Shown: one piece after another, positions 5,679-48,183 of the stretch
How the letters are laid out: each line of letters starts with the position of its first letter
Position numbering within the stretch: position 1 is the stretch's first letter
Sequence record: OL539451.1
Direction: 5' to 3' (one strand)
Source of the DNA: Escherichia phage vB_EcoD_Opt-719
Length of the DNA: 48,302 nucleotides
Notes under the pieces: model-generated
Database searches by the model: none
What the model saw: the letters and a program-made list of their open reading frames with translations, nothing else
Told to the model about the DNA's origin: nothing
Made by a program: the position numbers and the translations under genes

Positions 5679-6965
5679 ATGGCTAGCTTCTTGGAATTGG
5701 TAAGAGATAACATTGATAAGGGTTTAGCGACAATGCAGCCCGTTCAGTTATCAACTGAGTTTACTGCAATTAAAGAGATTAGGGTAGCAACATCAATCAC
5801 CACGCCACAAACAATATCAAGGAGTGATGAAACAAAGCTAATGTATACAACTTACGGGCTTGCTAACGTAGCTGGTGGTTCATACACAGGACAATCGCCA
5901 AACGGAGTCCAGATGAAGGTTGAGTTTATGACTGACTCAACTTTGTTCGAAATCAAAACCATCGGCTCAATCGGCACTTACTCAATTTTTATTGACGGCA
6001 AACTGGTAAATGCTGATGCATTCGCTACGCCAAATGGAGAGGCGGTGAGCTGGATGCAAGTTAAAGCTAATGACGGAGTTATCAGCGGGAAACTTCGACA
6101 CGTTGAAATCTACGGCATCAACTCAGCATTCGGAGCCTTCGTGTTTGGTGCTGGCGACACGGTTAGTCGTGAAATCTCAATCAAGCGCCCGCTTATTTAT
6201 CAGATGGGTGATAGTTATACTTATGGAACTGGTGCTGGATTCAGGACTCAAGCTTACGGCTCATCTCCTGCCGTAAATGACTTCTATGCATTCACCAGGT
6301 CTCTTGGTTTTGATGGTATTGCTGAAGGAATTGGTGGATCAGGATGGAACTCAGCTGCCGGTCAGTATCCAATGTCTCGCGTGCAAACAAGGCTTGCAAA
6401 GCTAAATCGCAAGCCGTCAGTTATCTCCTGGGCGCTTGGATATAATGATGCCGCTGCCATCCTGACTGGAACAAATAGCCAAAAGCTACTAGTTTCGATG
6501 GGTGAGTGTCTCGCTGAGACTAGGAAGGTTTATAGTGACGTTCCAATCATCCAGATTAGCAGCGCAACGCCGAAGGGAATTACCACTGGAATTCAGAAGG
6601 TAATTGATTTGGTTAATGGTTTTTGTTCTGATAACGACATTCCAGTAATTAACATAAGTAGCTATGTTACTAATGCTAACTCGGCAATTTATACAGGAAC
6701 AGACAACGTTCACCCGGGAACTCTTGGCCATGAGTTTAGGGGAATGGCAATGGCTCGCGAGGTTCTGCTTGCAGCCTCGGGTCAGAAATCACTAACAGTC
6801 CCAGTTACGCCGCGTGCATTTAACGTGGTAGCAAGGCTGACTAAAAGTTTTGGAGTTACAATCTTCTCTGGTGTAGTAAATGCTATTGATGAGAATGATG
6901 TTGCCGGACAGCTATACTTGCAGACTGGTGCTCGAGTGGAAATTCTCTCAGTATCTCGCGCCTAA
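5679..6965 (+). CDS. SGNH/GDSL-family hydrolase domain protein
   Basis: ordered GDSL blocks in C-terminal half: GDSYTYG, GYND, DNVHPGTLGH; ~170-aa non-catalytic N-domain; start set to ATG 5679 (GGAGGA RBS spacing); track start 5673. Confidence 0.65.
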   Translation: MASFLELVRDNIDKGLATMQPVQLSTEFTAIKEIRVATSITTPQTISRSDETKLMYTTYGLANVAGGSYTGQSPNGVQMKVEFMTDSTLFEIKTIGSIGTYSIFIDGKLVNADAFATPNGEAVSWMQVKANDGVISGKLRHVEIYGINSAFGAFVFGAGDTVSREISIKRPLIYQMGDSYTYGTGAGFRTQAYGSSPAVNDFYAFTRSLGFDGIAEGIGGSGWNSAAGQYPMSRVQTRLAKLNRKPSVISWALGYNDAAAILTGTNSQKLLVSMGECLAETRKVYSDVPIIQISSATPKGITTGIQKVIDLVNGFCSDNDIPVINISSYVTNANSAIYTGTDNVHPGTLGHEFRGMAMAREVLLAASGQKSLTVPVTPRAFNVVARLTKSFGVTIFSGVVNAIDENDVAGQLYLQTGARVEILSVSRA

Positions 6966-6969
6966 TATC

Positions 6970-6992
6970 AAACCTCCTTCGGGAGGTTTTTT
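6970..6992 (+). terminator. rho-independent terminator
   Basis: hairpin AACCTCC-TTCG-GGAGGTT followed by TTTTTT. Confidence 0.75.
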
Positions 6993-44107: not shown

Positions 44108-44247
44108 AACACATTGGATGGCTGGTAAACGGAACGTTCTACTCACTAACCGACGCAGTAAGGGTGGAAAGAATTAGAGTTAACTGCGGACGAAATGTCC
44201 AGATTCTTGAAATTTACGCAGAGGAGGAAGTATGCGTAAGGTACTGA
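44104..44247 (+). CDS. hypothetical small protein (47 aa)
   Basis: ATG overlaps upstream TGA (ATGA); 3' end overlaps start of membrane-protein gene; GGAG RBS. Confidence 0.3.
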   Translation: MKHIGWLVNGTFYSLTDAVRVERIRVNCGRNVQILEIYAEEEVCVRY

Positions 44248-44708
44248 TGATATGCGTCTATGTTGCCATATTCTTATTGGCAAACCTCCTGGTAGCCTCA
44301 TTTGGTCCAGCGGTAACTCCATTTAACGCACTTTTTCTTATAGCGGCAGACATGGTATTAAGGGACAGGATTCAGTTTGAGAGCGGTGCGGCATGGTCAA
44401 TACTAGCATGCTTCCTTGCCGGATTTGCGACTGTATTAATAGCGCCAGGTTCAGAGATGATTGCTTTAGCATCTGGCCTATCATGCTTACTTGCTGGATC
44501 AGCTTCAGCGATTGCATTCAAATTAAAGTCTGGTGGATTTTTTCAGAAGGCGTTGCCAGCAAACGTAATTGCTGCTGCGGTAGATTCAATTGCATTCCCA
44601 TTAATTGCTTTCGGGTCTATAATGCCAGGCATAACAGCAGCCCAGTTTGCCGCTAAAACTATTGGCGCATCAATCATACTATTAATCATAAGGAAATTAT
44701 CTAAGTGA
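44232..44708 (+). CDS. polytopic inner-membrane protein, tentatively YhhQ/Vut-like (DUF165) transporter
   Basis: 158 aa, ~5 predicted TM helices, GAGGAGG RBS; family guess from size, topology and conserved-looking Asp/Arg residues (AADMVLRDR, AVDSIAFPLIAF); unverified. Confidence 0.4.
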   Translation: MRKVLMICVYVAIFLLANLLVASFGPAVTPFNALFLIAADMVLRDRIQFESGAAWSILACFLAGFATVLIAPGSEMIALASGLSCLLAGSASAIAFKLKSGGFFQKALPANVIAAAVDSIAFPLIAFGSIMPGITAAQFAAKTIGASIILLIIRKLSK

Positions 44709-45535
44709 CAATTCACTTCCATGGCTCCCCTATAACGGGGGGCAAGGGCGATGCACTTGCTCGGACCGCGTATACAAATGGCGGTGCTTTCGTGTCATTC
44801 GCCCACCCGCAGCAGATAGAATTGGCGTTTAAGGTAGCGAATGCAGTATGCATAGATAATGGTGCGTTCTCTAAGAAGAATAGCGGCAAAGCTACTGACT
44901 GGCATAAATTCTATAATGACTTTTTACCCAGATTTATCGACAGAGAAAAGTTACGATTCTTTGTTATACCTGATGATATCAGCGGGTGCGACAAAGAGAA
45001 CGACAGATTAATAAGCGAACTTCCATTACACCTAAAGCACAAAGGAGCTCCAGTCTGGCATATGCATGAGAGCTTAGACAGGCTAGTCCACCTTGCCAAC
45101 GAGTGGGAATACATGTGTATAGGCTCGTCAGGCGAGTACTACTCTATCCGTTCAGAGAAATGGAAGCGGCGCATGAATGATGCCTTTAACGCTCTAATTC
45201 AGAGGGGCTACTCAGCAAAAATTCACGGCCTCAGAATGCTGGATGGTCGAGTTCTTGGCAACTACCCACTGGATCAGGCTGACTCAACAAACCTGGCTAT
45301 TAATGCGCCTAAGTGGATATGCAAATATATAGATATGACCATTGAGGCGTGCCGAGCTCAGACTCACAGAGACGCATGGATTTCAACCTCAGATCCGAAG
45401 TTTGCACTTGAGCAATTAATCGCAGACGGCGGCACAAGGGAGCAGATGCTGGCACAGAGATGCGCGATACTCAGGAATTGCATAGAAGCAGTAAGGCCAC
45501 CATCAAGGGATTCATGGAATAGCACGAATTGCTAA
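44705..45535 (+). CDS. hypothetical enzyme, tentatively TGT/DpdA-like transglycosylase
   Basis: 276 aa; GTG start overlapping upstream TGA (GTGA); motif VCIDNGAFS loosely resembles TGT catalytic DSGGFQ; call rests mainly on gene context; unverified. Confidence 0.3.
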   Translation: MTIHFHGSPITGGKGDALARTAYTNGGAFVSFAHPQQIELAFKVANAVCIDNGAFSKKNSGKATDWHKFYNDFLPRFIDREKLRFFVIPDDISGCDKENDRLISELPLHLKHKGAPVWHMHESLDRLVHLANEWEYMCIGSSGEYYSIRSEKWKRRMNDAFNALIQRGYSAKIHGLRMLDGRVLGNYPLDQADSTNLAINAPKWICKYIDMTIEACRAQTHRDAWISTSDPKFALEQLIADGGTREQMLAQRCAILRNCIEAVRPPSRDSWNSTNC

Positions 45536-47746: not shown

Positions 47747-47822
47747 GTTCTGTTAGTGTAAGTGGACAGCACGAAGACCTCCTAAGTCTTAGGTACTGGT
47801 TCAAGTCCAGTGCGGAACGCCA
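47747..47822 (+). tRNA. tRNA-Arg (anticodon CCU)
   Basis: 76 nt cloverleaf by hand: 7-bp acceptor (GTTCTGT/GCGGAAC, two G-U), D-stem GTGT/GCAC with GG in loop, anticodon loop CUCCUAA, T-arm ACTGG-TTCAAGT-CCAGT, encoded CCA. Confidence 0.8.
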
Positions 47823-47827
47823 AATAT

Positions 47828-47929
47828 GCTCACGTTGCTAATGTTGGCCTAAGGGTGGAGCTTATACCTCCATAAAGCAATCACCAGATAAGTGATGTAA
47901 CGCAGGTTCGATTCCTGCCGTGAGCACCA
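47828..47929 (+). tRNA. atypical tRNA-like element (102 nt incl. CCA)
   Basis: perfect 7-bp acceptor pairing GCTCACG/CGTGAGC, T-arm GCAGG-TTCGATT-CCTGC, discriminator A plus CCA; two candidate anticodon stem-loops (CUUAUAC, CAGAUAA); D-region ~26 nt too long. Confidence 0.35.
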
Positions 47930-47945
47930 ATCATGGAGCATCCTA

Positions 47946-48131
47946 GTGAATAACTACGAAGTCCGTTTAACTTCCCGCCTAATGGGCAGGCAATGCAAAT
48001 CTTGCCAGCAATCCTACGAAGGTAGGTTCCCTGCTAACAGCCCTGAAGAAGCAGTTGCAGCCGCAAAGGCAGCATTTAAGATTGACCTGACGGTTCACAA
48101 AGTCAGCGTTGATAAAGTATCCCTCGTTTGA
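47946..48131 (+). CDS. hypothetical protein (61 aa)
   Basis: GTG start with GGAG 8 nt upstream; Ala/Lys-rich; followed by strong terminator. Confidence 0.35.
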   Translation: MNNYEVRLTSRLMGRQCKSCQQSYEGRFPANSPEEAVAAAKAAFKIDLTVHKVSVDKVSLV

Positions 48132-48159: not shown

Positions 48160-48183
48160 GCCCTCCTCGTGAGGGCTTTTTTT
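48160..48183 (+). terminator. rho-independent terminator
   Basis: hairpin GCCCTC-CTCGT-GAGGGC followed by TTTTTTTT. Confidence 0.7.

Follow-up and report, generated by a model that had tools for sequence, protein, structure and literature searches.

A probable class-II-like phage tRNA-Ile(UAU) whose GAU-bearing extra arm is a candidate isoleucine identity element

Two tRNA-like elements lie 5 nt apart in Escherichia phage vB_EcoD_Opt-719 (OL539451.1; the window analyzed is the whole stretch of 48,302 nt), and the second of these is oversized and presents two hairpin loops, each with an isoleucine-type triplet. This raises the questions of whether the second element is a tRNA, which of its hairpins decodes, and what the other one contributes. 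The original prediction of two adjacent tRNAs is confirmed. The first is indeed a 76-nt tRNA-Arg(CCU) with an encoded CCA, called by ARAGORN at exactly the predicted ends and scoring 52 bits against Rfam RF00005 (gathering score 29); relatives have either Arg(CCU) or Arg(UCU) in the same place. Given the 5-nt spacer, we infer that both tRNAs come from a single precursor transcript, which RNase P and enzymes of 3' processing would separate. The features of the locus are listed in Table 1. Small ORFs homologous to the 61-aa ORF also come after the tRNAs in relatives, although for the ORF this is context only. The downstream hairpin closes a unit composed of the two tRNAs and the small ORF, and is located just upstream of the small-terminase gene region.

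Table 1. Features of the tandem tRNA locus of Opt-719 (positions in the window)
Feature	Coordinates	Strand	Remarks
tRNA-Arg(CCU)	47747..47822	+	76 nt, CCA encoded; canonical anticodon loop CUCCUAA; reader of AGG
Spacer AAUAU	47823..47827	+	5 nt between the two tRNAs; tandem order kept in relatives
Proposed class-II-like tRNA-Ile(UAU) with GAU-presenting extra arm (whole gene)	47828..47929	+	102 nt; A73 47926, CCA 47927-47929
Acceptor stem, 5' strand GCUCACG	47828..47834	+	7/7 pairs with CGUGAGC 47919-47925
U8 U9 and degenerate D region GCUAAUGUUGGCCUAAGG	47835..47854	+	Invariant columns UUGCUAAU and UGG (G18 G19); R15 equivalent G47843
Hairpin 2, proposed anticodon arm	47855..47873	+	Stem G.U + UGGAG/CUCCA; loop CUUAUAC (C32 U33 U34 A35 U36 A37 C38) 47861-47867; anticodon UAU 47863-47865
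Linker AAAGCA	47874..47879	+	AGC 47876-47878 invariant, complementary to G10 C11 U12; resembles a duplicated D-stem 3' strand plus N26
Hairpin 3, proposed extra (variable) arm	47880..47896	+	Stem AUCAC/GUGAU; loop CAGAUAA 47885-47891; GAU 47887-47889 copies the tRNA-Ile(GAU) anticodon
3' part of variable region GUAAC	47897..47901	+	C47901 is the Y48 partner of G47843
T arm GCAGG-UUCGAUU-CCUGC	47902..47918	+	T loop invariant; 3/5 stem pairs covary
Conserved 61-aa ORF, function unassigned	47946..48131	+	Directly 3' of the tRNAs; phrog_2919, E = 8.9e-29
Intrinsic-terminator-like hairpin and T run	48160..48183	+	From terminator scan; terminator annotated at the equivalent spot in relatives

The second element has the parts that had been described for it, with a 7-bp acceptor stem, a T arm, A73 followed by CCA, and two hairpins with 5-bp stems and 7-nt Ile-type loops, and it scores 42.7 bits against RF00005 (gathering score 29). 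ARAGORN, one of the checks proposed with the original prediction, found the tRNA-Arg exactly but returned only a nonsense 'tRNA-???' at 47837-47929 for its neighbor. The fold of the element beats all 200 shuffles (z = -2.79). A chance fold is excluded by conservation, because the element belongs to a family of 98 copies (75 distinct) in unrelated phages in which compensatory changes occur. Among the distinct sequences, 20 of the 27 pairs of the structure show such changes, with double changes at 7/7 pairs of the acceptor stem, 5/6 of hairpin 2, 5/5 of hairpin 3 and 3/5 of the T stem; 94.8% of cells are paired, compared with 37-52% when the partners are slid by 1-3 columns. The acceptor stem is paired in 99.8% of cells and at all seven positions in 74 of the 75 sequences, A73 is present in all 75 and CCA in 74, and GGUUCGAUUCC is invariant across the family, with a 5-bp T stem and a consensus T loop. 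The tertiary core is likewise retained: UGG (G18G19) is invariant, and a Levitt-type R15-Y48 pair (columns 16 and 78) is found in 75/75, as A-U in 46 and G-C in 29 without exception. Both hairpin loops are strongly constrained, hairpin 2 as YUUAUAN with positions 33-37 invariant (T34 in 75/75), and hairpin 3 as YAGAUAA, with AGAUAA in 75/75 including those sequences where the search had not imposed it.

We conclude from these patterns of conservation that the element is almost certainly a real, functional member of the tRNA family. The suggestion that it is a decaying pseudogene is refuted by the covariation in four helices and the perfectly conserved tertiary pair, which also dispose of a chance fold, and the option of a tRNA-derived regulatory RNA found no support in the sequences compared. 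Two other pairings were considered and rejected. The GCUA/UGGC hairpin of the minimum free energy fold takes up G18G19, has no covariation behind it and is disrupted in PhiM1, and a longer hairpin-3 stem formed through GCA/UGU is not kept in the UAGAUAA subfamily.

Phages from a wide range of hosts and environments carry members of the family, and it is phage-specific. A blastn search of 5,426 E. coli genomes gave no match to the element, and kinship with the ile tRNAs of lambdoid or Stx prophages was rejected accordingly; only four genuine copies were found in 185,579 species genomes, and a cellular origin was likewise rejected. Three of these four are on contigs of 10-14 kb (two of them in MAGs), and the fourth is on a 207-kb Actinobacillus contig and is possibly in a prophage. 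A 90-nt environmental family member has no blastn match among cultured phages.

The next question is which hairpin serves as the anticodon arm. The excess length of about 26 nt had been assigned to the D-arm region, with an insertion as one option, and this parse is probably wrong. In relatives of 89-94 nt the D arm is perfectly canonical, the anticodon arm presents UAU, and the AGAUAA hairpin takes the place of the variable arm; ARAGORN labels them tRNA-Ile(tat). By homology to these shorter forms the Opt-719 element is probably a class-II-like tRNA-Ile(UAU) and not a D-arm insertion. Intermediates of 99-101 nt share the G10.A25 D stem, with GCUU/AAGA D stems among the intermediates. Hairpin 2 would thus be the anticodon arm, and hairpin 3 a long variable arm whose single-stranded tethers are unusually long (6-7 nt at the 5' foot, ~5 nt at the 3' foot). 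The variable region so defined is 28-29 nt (47873/47874-47901), exceeding the paired arm of >10 nt that is expected of class II. Other class II features are absent, in that the anticodon is UAU in every member rather than that of a bacterial Leu, Ser, Tyr or Sec isotype, the D stem has no more than two Watson-Crick pairs rather than a regular three, and the foot of the arm has more than 1-2 unpaired bases. This topology gives the 102-nt subfamily a weak D stem, consisting of C11-G24 and U12-A23 (paired in 67/75), with G10.R25 mismatched in 75/75 and 13-22 mostly unpaired. Among the four options offered by the original prediction, its 'unusual type-II-like architecture' is the one we favor, and we consider it probable that the element is a UAU decoder of AUA with the variable-arm topology.

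An alternative is that the 102-nt form carries an insertion in its D loop, such that G10 C11 U12 pair with A47876 G47877 C47878, hairpin 3 acts as the anticodon arm and reads AUU and AUC through GAU, GUAAC is a normal 5-nt variable loop, and hairpin 2 is an extra arm leaving the D loop. This parse is formally possible because GCU(10-12) and AGC(47876-47878) are invariant and complementary, giving three Watson-Crick pairs in 75/75. Rfam aligns the Opt-719 copy in just this way, with GAU as the anticodon, and takes hairpin 2 as the anticodon arm in the PCEc3 homologue. Moreover, the order AAGC-A-stem-CAGAUAA-stem-5 nt reproduces, element by element, a class I tRNA-Ile(GAU) from the D-stem 3' half through the anticodon arm to the variable loop. 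Some class I genes for tRNA-Ile(GAU) in phages have the identical A33 loop, so A33 is no bar to decoding by hairpin 3. However, the parse is impossible in the shorter homologues, where the D-stem pairs are already complete and hairpin 3 would shrink to 2-3 bp, and 93-nt and 102-nt forms swap within one phage genus (Vibrio phage Pontus has the former, its genus-mate River4 the latter). It also leaves the invariant, perfect U33-UAU-A37 loop of hairpin 2 unexplained. The gene furthermore occurs in phages in addition to a canonical tRNA-Ile(GAU) (20 loci), and neither AUU nor AUC is rare in the hosts. Nearest-neighbor energies do not discriminate between the D-stem models (means of -26.3 and -25.5 kcal/mol, and -26.9 kcal/mol without a D stem). 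On balance we regard a D-loop insertion as improbable.

Slightly less probable still is that both parses are used. In the 99-104-nt subfamily only, GCU could re-pair with either the AG preceding hairpin 2 or the AGC following it, giving a bistable tRNA of which the GAU-anticodon conformer is charged by IleRS and the UAU-anticodon conformer decodes AUA; the 102-nt subfamily may toggle between two cloverleaves in this way. The two partner strands are both conserved (AGC in 75/75; G24 in 75/75 and A23 in 67/75), the folds are nearly isoenergetic, the architecture looks like that of a duplicated segment, and UAU is charged only poorly by the IleRS of E. coli, all of which fits such a switch. Against this, the shorter members have the same two loops and cannot switch, covariation is unobtainable because all of the bases concerned are invariant, and we know of no natural tRNA that works by switching conformers.

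We return to the variable-arm topology and to the role of hairpin 3. Its GAU loop, whose significance had been missed, is conserved and marks out a large phage-specific family. When long-arm UAU tRNAs were sought with no constraint on the sequence of the extra arm, 43-46 of 52 (83-88%) had a centered GAU, in loops such as CAGAUUA, UAGAUAG, CUGAUAA and CCGAUUA, with arm stems ranging from 3 to 7 bp. The GAU hairpin is in turn nearly always found on a UAU tRNA (~100 of 120 hits), and those hairpin-3 loops with A33 recur unchanged as anticodon loops in phage genes for class I tRNA-Ile(GAU). A kissing-loop or 'codon mimic' interaction, in which AUA in hairpin 3 pairs with the UAU anticodon, was rejected because the loops of relatives (CAGAUUA, UAGAUCG, CAGAUGG) conserve GAU and not AUA.

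UAU tRNAs are charged poorly by E. coli IleRS, and an unmodified UAU misreads AUG on E. coli ribosomes. The identity set of E. coli tRNA-Ile, reportedly defined by Nureki et al. in 1994, comprises A73, U12-A23 and G34/L34-A35-U36-t6A37-A38. In the family, A73 is present in 75/75 and U12-A23 in 67/75, C4-G69 and C29-G41 are not conserved, and the G-A-U-A-A series occurs, though on the extra arm rather than in the decoding loop. Because an E. coli-type IleRS would recognize G34 or lysidine34 followed by A35-U36, leaving UAU tRNAs as poor substrates, the extra arm may supply the GAU loop as a displaced identity element, showing the enzyme a copy of the tRNA-Ile(GAU) anticodon loop. Charging with isoleucine would then proceed via the GAU arm and decoding via the UAU arm, independently of the host lysidine enzyme TilS. 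We put the GAU loop as an IleRS handle not far short of an even chance; arm stems of 3-7 bp fit awkwardly with a single fixed docking geometry. That the element is a natural 'split-identity' tRNA, with the synthetase-read triplet (GAU, on a tethered arm) set apart from the ribosome-read triplet (UAU), is put forward tentatively, as somewhat below even, and such a model leaves unexplained how a phage UAU tRNA avoids misreading AUG. For the account as a whole, a class-II-like tRNA-Ile(UAU) for host-rare AUA with the GAU arm as its IleRS identity element, we see the chances as evenly divided.

The GAU hairpin could instead be directed at host defenses, with it or the whole tRNA countering anticodon nucleases that act on tRNA-Ile(GAU), either as a competitive pseudo-substrate or as a nuclease-insensitive donor of isoleucine. 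One such enzyme, the prophage HEPN anticodon nuclease HepS, is triggered by the siphophage tail-tip protein J and cleaves tRNA-Thr, tRNA-Ile(GAU) and tRNA-Ser(GCU) (PMC13043305). Confinement of the family to phages is consistent with a role of this kind, as is the frequent lack of U33 (replaced by A33 or C33) in phage tRNA-Ile(GAU) and extra-arm loops, which is expected under nuclease pressure. However, a UAU tRNA is no substitute for tRNA-Ile(GAU) on AUU and AUC, a single nuclease specificity is unlikely across so many hosts and environments, and the association of the hairpin with UAU tRNAs and not with others fits an identity problem specific to UAU. We therefore consider an anti-defense tRNA or decoy unlikely, on a par with the conformational switch.

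The point that a UAU anticodon would serve AUA decoding was correct, and the proposed codon count was performed for Opt-719. AUA is used at 11.0 per 1000 codons (17.5% of Ile) and AGG at 12.0 per 1000 (25.5% of Arg), so both codons are heavily used, and the element and the adjoining tRNA-Arg(CCU) most likely decode host-rare AUA and AGG respectively. Aligned to the relative Rogue1, AUA positions of Opt-719 correspond to Ile in 77% and Leu in 6% of cases, compared with 82% and 5% for AUU positions, and 31 of 90 AUA positions have AUU or AUC in Rogue1. The gene does not track AUA load, as Rogue1 lacks it and uses AUA slightly more (13.3 per 1000); similar AUA use in its absence limits the tRNA to an accessory role at most. 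The discriminator A73 of this element is also that of tRNA-Leu and tRNA-Tyr in E. coli. It is nonetheless very improbable that the element is, through its long arm, recognized by LeuRS (or SerRS or TyrRS), with AUA partly read as Leu or Ser, even though two reports describe leucine charging in vitro of a nematode tRNA-Ile(UAU) with a variable arm (PMC3333845, PMC4300185), because AUA positions behave like AUU positions in the Rogue1 alignment, the conserved trait of the arm is its GAU triplet and not its length or orientation, and its long single-stranded tethers are unlike those of Ser, Leu and Tyr tRNA arms.

Our searches of the full-text literature outside subscription journals turned up no account of a tRNA-Ile(UAU) of phages whose extra arm bears GAU. 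The design is thus undescribed in the literature we found, and it is mostly missed by gene finders. ARAGORN missed 92 of the 98 family copies, Rfam detection is uneven (the ETEP102 and ESCO41 copies are not reported at the gathering threshold), and among 24 GenBank phage records the homologue is annotated as tRNA-Ile in 6 and unannotated in 18. Censuses of phage tRNAs, and conclusions on AUA decoding drawn from them, are consequently biased.

To our knowledge, all cellular organisms have Ile tRNAs of class I, and IleRS identity depends on the anticodon. A widespread class-II-like phage tRNA-Ile with a second, invariant GAU loop would break both rules, and it offers a testable answer to how AUA might be read by a UAU tRNA where the host IleRS rejects UAU and the usual route needs the essential TilS. 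If this is true, identity for an anticodon-dependent aminoacyl-tRNA synthetase can come from outside the anticodon arm, and phages can bring in a codon reader otherwise unacceptable to the host IleRS, with no need of TilS. If confirmed, such tRNAs would be a natural template for engineered tRNAs in which decoding and charging are uncoupled.

Comparison with known systems places the element between several classes. With bacterial class II tRNAs (Leu, Ser, Tyr, Sec) it shares a paired arm between the anticodon and T stems, the 7/5 branch, the R15-Y48 tertiary pair and a short D stem. It differs in its UAU (Ile) anticodon, the Ile isotype being, as far as we know, class I everywhere in bacteria; in its 7-nt, anticodon-like arm loop with an invariant GAU, where theirs are 3-5 nt of free sequence; and in its tethers, which are 1-2 nt in those tRNAs. 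The lysidine-type tRNA-Ile2 (CAU modified to lysidine, such as E. coli ileX and ileY) occupies the same niche of a minor Ile tRNA for rare AUA and, like the element, is often found on mobile elements alongside rare-Arg tRNAs. The phage gene has TAT rather than the CAT from which TilS makes k2C-A-U, and would need no TilS step; its product also has a class-II-like shape.

An unmodified-type UAU that decodes AUA without lysidine or TilS is found in Mycoplasma mobile tRNA-Ile2(UAU) (PMC3575796), and the phage tRNA would share this property. The M. mobile tRNA is class I and needs a changed IleRS (Arg865 for Trp) and an AUG-rejecting ribosome (PMC3575796), whereas the phage tRNA must use an unaltered host IleRS and has the added GAU hairpin. 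Nematode nev-tRNA-Ile(UAU) (PMC3333845, PMC4300185) similarly combines a UAU anticodon with a long variable arm and departs from the class I rule; those eukaryotic tRNAs descend from tRNA-Leu and accept leucine in vitro, whereas the element has a GAU arm loop and the AUA positions, judged by the alignment proxy, are Ile-like. Allo-tRNAs (PMC5389517) are also non-canonical long-arm tRNAs of metagenomes and phages with UAU as a frequent anticodon, although they have an 8/4 or 9/3 acceptor/T branch and Ser identity, and the family described here has a 7/5 branch throughout, and A73. Phage genes for class I tRNA-Ile(GAU) with A33 or C33 loops (L337:5027-5102, L355:2868-2943 and, in Pontus, L238:604-679) are 76 nt with one anticodon arm and, unlike the element, no UAU hairpin. 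Their loop is that of hairpin 3 (UAGAUAA or CAGAUAA), and they can be aligned to the element over the T arm and the 3' half. They are the probable source of the extra arm, which would have arisen by duplication of the segment comprising the D-stem 3' strand, N26 and the anticodon arm.

The window appears to be the complete genome of a T1-like (Drexlerviridae) phage, and its 261-nt tRNA region is 100% identical to those of Escherichia phage vB_EcoD_Phleasolo, Klebsiella phage vB_KpnD_Opt-79 and phage vB_EcoD_Sadiya. The original prediction described a tRNA-Arg(CCU) followed by an oversized tRNA-like gene (the long element) with two anticodon-like stem-loops, hairpins 2 and 3, and we recover both genes with the same arms and loops. 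The predictors divide on the long element: the Rfam tRNA model accepts it (gathering score 29), but ARAGORN returns only a meaningless 'tRNA-???'. The fold of the long element beats 200 of 200 shuffles (z = -2.79).

Features of the tRNA region and of other genes in the window
Feature	Position	Strand	Detail
158-aa membrane ORF	44232-44708		hydrophobic
276-aa ORF	44705-45535	+	PHROG family 'queuine tRNA-ribosyltransferase', phrog_887, E = 7e-71
tRNA-Arg(CCU)	47747-47822	+	ARAGORN, exact span; Rfam 52 bits, 47747-47819
Long element	47828-47929	+	102 nt; Rfam 42.7 bits, 47828-47926; ARAGORN 'tRNA-???', 47837-47929
Acceptor stem of long element			GCUCACG/CGUGAGC, then A73, encoded CCA (sequence)
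Hairpin 2	47855-47873		5 bp plus a G.U pair, 7-nt loop CUUAUAC (sequence)
Hairpin 3	47880-47896		5 bp, 7-nt loop CAGAUAA (sequence)
T arm of long element			GCAGG-UUCGAUU-CCUGC (sequence)
61-aa ORF	47946-48131	+	conserved, phrog_2919 (unknown function)
Strong terminator	48160-48183		3' of the 61-aa ORF

Elsewhere in the window, the 276-aa ORF looks like a DpdA-type enzyme; some phages use these to place 7-deazaguanines in their own DNA. The 158-aa ORF lies upstream of it and overlaps it, and could be a precursor transporter. The 61-aa ORF is always 3' of the tRNA cassette. Comparison of window 47747-47929 with Shigella phage Sd1 (L004:648-802), Sf12 and Rogue1 (L005 and L006) places the variable Drexlerviridae cassette in a slot upstream of a small ORF and the terminase genes; the cassette consists of Arg(CCU) alone, of Trp(CCA)+Arg(CCU), or of a long Ile gene behind either Arg(UCU) or Arg(CCU).

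Using the element alone as a blastn query, we found it in 24 cultured-phage records of unrelated groups: T1-like coliphages, an N4-like and a T5-like Vibrio phage, a 144-kb Klebsiella phage, a 309-kb Xanthomonas jumbo phage, and a T7-like and several FelixO1-like Pectobacterium phages. The copies usually sit within tRNA arrays, and only 6/24 records annotate them, each time as tRNA-Ile. With the matches from two IMG/VR pattern scans added, the set grew to 98 copies (75 distinct), 92 of which ARAGORN misses. The family was not found in 5,426 complete E. coli genomes, and 185,579 species-representative genomes held only four genuine copies: one lies on an Actinobacillus contig of 207 kb, the other three on contigs of 10-14 kb.

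Across the 75 distinct sequences the acceptor stem is paired 7/7 in all but one, despite quite different stem sequences, with A73 in 75/75 and CCA in 74/75. Double, compensatory changes are seen in 7/7 acceptor, 5/6 hairpin-2, 5/5 hairpin-3 and 3/5 T-stem pairs, and 94.8% of all cells form pairs, against 37-52% when partners are slid by 1-3 columns. A mutual-information scan also matched the D-loop purine G47843 with the last variable-region base, C47901, outside any helix; these columns are A-U in 46 and G-C in 29 sequences with no exceptions, a pattern diagnostic of the purine15-pyrimidine48 pair in the tRNA core. Compensatory changes in four helices and this exceptionless pair refute the decaying pseudogene first entertained, and by its substitution pattern the long element is a conserved gene family and not a relic.

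Several positions depart from convention. Acceptor pair 1-72 (columns 1/103 of the 75-sequence alignment) is a G.U wobble in 42/75, A-U in 16/75 and G-C or C-G in only 17/75, the window copy having G1-C72; elongator tRNAs do not usually have so weak a 1-72 pair. The pair closing the hairpin-2 loop (columns 33/41, tRNA positions 31-39) is mismatched (C.A, A.A or A.C) in 44/75, giving an effective 9-nt loop, and covaries with loop position 38; in the window G47860-C47868 is paired. The phage ESCO41 copy (L003:727-828, also L049) falls below Rfam reporting at the gathering threshold, and would need 3'-end repair or be a slightly damaged gene, because it ends in CUA instead of CCA.

Loop conservation was judged from the scan pattern that imposes neither loop. 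The hairpin-2 loop is fixed as Y-U-U-A-U-A-N, with positions 32 and 38 varying freely; as in any textbook anticodon loop, U33 precedes the anticodon, here UAU, and A37 follows it. The hairpin-3 loop, fixed as Y-A-G-A-U-A-A, corresponds by sequence to the anticodon loop of the major tRNA-Ile(GAU) with A for U at position 33.

Two cloverleaves contest G10 C11 U12, and folding energies do not decide between them. We assign, from homologues, the one in which GCU pairs with AG before hairpin 2, which would make hairpin 2 the anticodon arm and turn hairpin 3 into a long variable arm; its D stem has C11-G24 in 75/75 and U12-A23 in 67/75, with G10.R25 always mismatched. A scan requiring only TTATA, AGATAA and the T loop yielded many 89-94-nt phage tRNAs with a UAU anticodon arm, the AGAUAA hairpin as variable arm and a perfectly ordinary D arm (e.g. 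GCUC-AGUUGGUA-GAGC), 81 of them called tRNA-Ile(tat) by ARAGORN. Cultured phages with this short form include Vibrio phage henriette 12B8 and Thalassavirus phages; Pontus carries a 93-nt gene directly 3' of a canonical tRNA-Ile(GAU), and the congeneric River4 has the 102-nt form in its place. In intermediates of 99-101 nt the D stem is GCUU/AAGA and again mismatched, at G10.A25; everything else in them aligns with the window element base for base. Because these homologues show that architecture, we assign the long element as a class-II-like tRNA-Ile(UAU), which favours the type-II-like option of the original prediction over its D-arm insertion. The insertion, in which GCU pairs with AGC after hairpin 2 and hairpin 3 is the anticodon arm, is how Rfam aligns the window copy, and its three pairs form in 75/75 sequences, but they never vary; we consider it unlikely. 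Switching between the two folds, confined to the 99-104-nt subfamily, seems rather improbable. The sequence suggests that the long form is a tRNA-Ile(GAU) with the block of D-stem 3' strand, N26 and anticodon arm duplicated, and therefore both folds can be drawn; the first copy would now carry UAU and the second still GAU.

To avoid circularity, we scanned for UAU tRNAs blind to the arm (TTATA, then 25-45 nt, T loop, ACCA). Among 52 distinct well-formed tRNAs, all at loci new to the analysis, the extra-arm hairpin has a centred GAU in 43 (46 on inspection), in loops including CAGAUUA, UAGAUAG, UAGAUCG, CUGAUUA, CCGAUUA and CUGAUAA. The arm loop as an AUA-codon mimic pairing with the anticodon is ruled out, because any of the four bases can stand 3' of GAU. 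In the converse scan (AGATAA upstream of the T arm) about 100 of 120 matches are UAU-plus-arm tRNAs, so that the GAU arm goes with UAU tRNAs and hardly any others. A few others among the matches are phage tRNA-Ile(GAU) genes of class I that have UAGAUAA or CAGAUAA as the anticodon loop itself, and we infer from these that the extra arm is a copy of the phage-type loop, including its unusual A33. Canonical-length phage tRNA-Ile(GAU) genes without the near-universal U33 occur in Pontus (L238:604-679), River4 (L011:1227-1302), L337:5027-5102 and L355:2868-2943, with loops CCGAUAA (C33), UAGAUAA and CAGAUAA (A33); this may reflect anticodon-nuclease pressure or a decoding feature peculiar to phages. 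The AGATAA scan also picked up a 93-nt tRNA-like gene with a long arm (L343, IMG/VR contig 3300045538_000441, ~6900-6990), whose anticodon appears to be CUA, that of an amber suppressor.

Codon use points to rare-codon supply, in keeping with the codons originally proposed for the two genes: in a crude ORF set AUA makes up 17.5% of Ile codons (11.0 per 1000 codons overall) and AGG 25.5% of Arg codons (12.0 per 1000), against roughly 4-5 and 1-2 per 1000 in E. coli, where both are among the rarest codons. The long element is not redundant with canonical tRNA-Ile(GAU), since the two co-occur in 20 loci. G-A-U(-A-A) is the anticodon-loop part of the isoleucyl-tRNA synthetase (IleRS) identity set, and hairpin 3 would present it to IleRS as a displaced identity element. 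This is the simplest reading and a serious but tentative one: IleRS would have to read a loop on a variable arm, and the arm stem ranges from 3 to 7 bp across homologues. IleRS of E. coli charges UAU tRNAs poorly, and in Mycoplasma mobile a UAU tRNA-Ile requires an altered IleRS (PMC3575796). A role of the arm or tRNA in evading or decoying anticodon nucleases is improbable, even though HepS cleaves tRNA-Ile(GAU) on sensing siphophage J protein (PMC13043305). A UAU tRNA misreads AUG on E. coli ribosomes (PMC3575796), an error that the phage tRNA would have to avoid. AUA most likely means Ile in this phage, because its positions align with Ile in Rogue1, a related phage without the long element (Ile 77%, Leu only 6%; AUU positions give 82% Ile), 31/90 lying opposite AUU or AUC. 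Mischarging with Leu or Ser, of the type that nematode V-arm tRNA-Ile(UAU) is reported to show (PMC3333845 and PMC4300185), is thus very improbable here.

The full-text literature searched, with subscription journals outside its coverage, held no description of a phage tRNA-Ile(UAU) with a GAU-bearing extra arm. Biologists working on tRNAs or on phages should find the family highly interesting; the mechanism put forward for it is a proposal. The long element differs from ordinary class II tRNAs in its isotype, its anticodon-like arm loop and its long tethers; it is no member of the allo-tRNAs, as its branch is 7/5, and its context is Ile whereas that of nev-tRNAs is Leu. Its anticodon is TAT, unlike the CAT of lysidine-type tRNA-Ile, and it would work like a minor AUA-reading tRNA-Ile.
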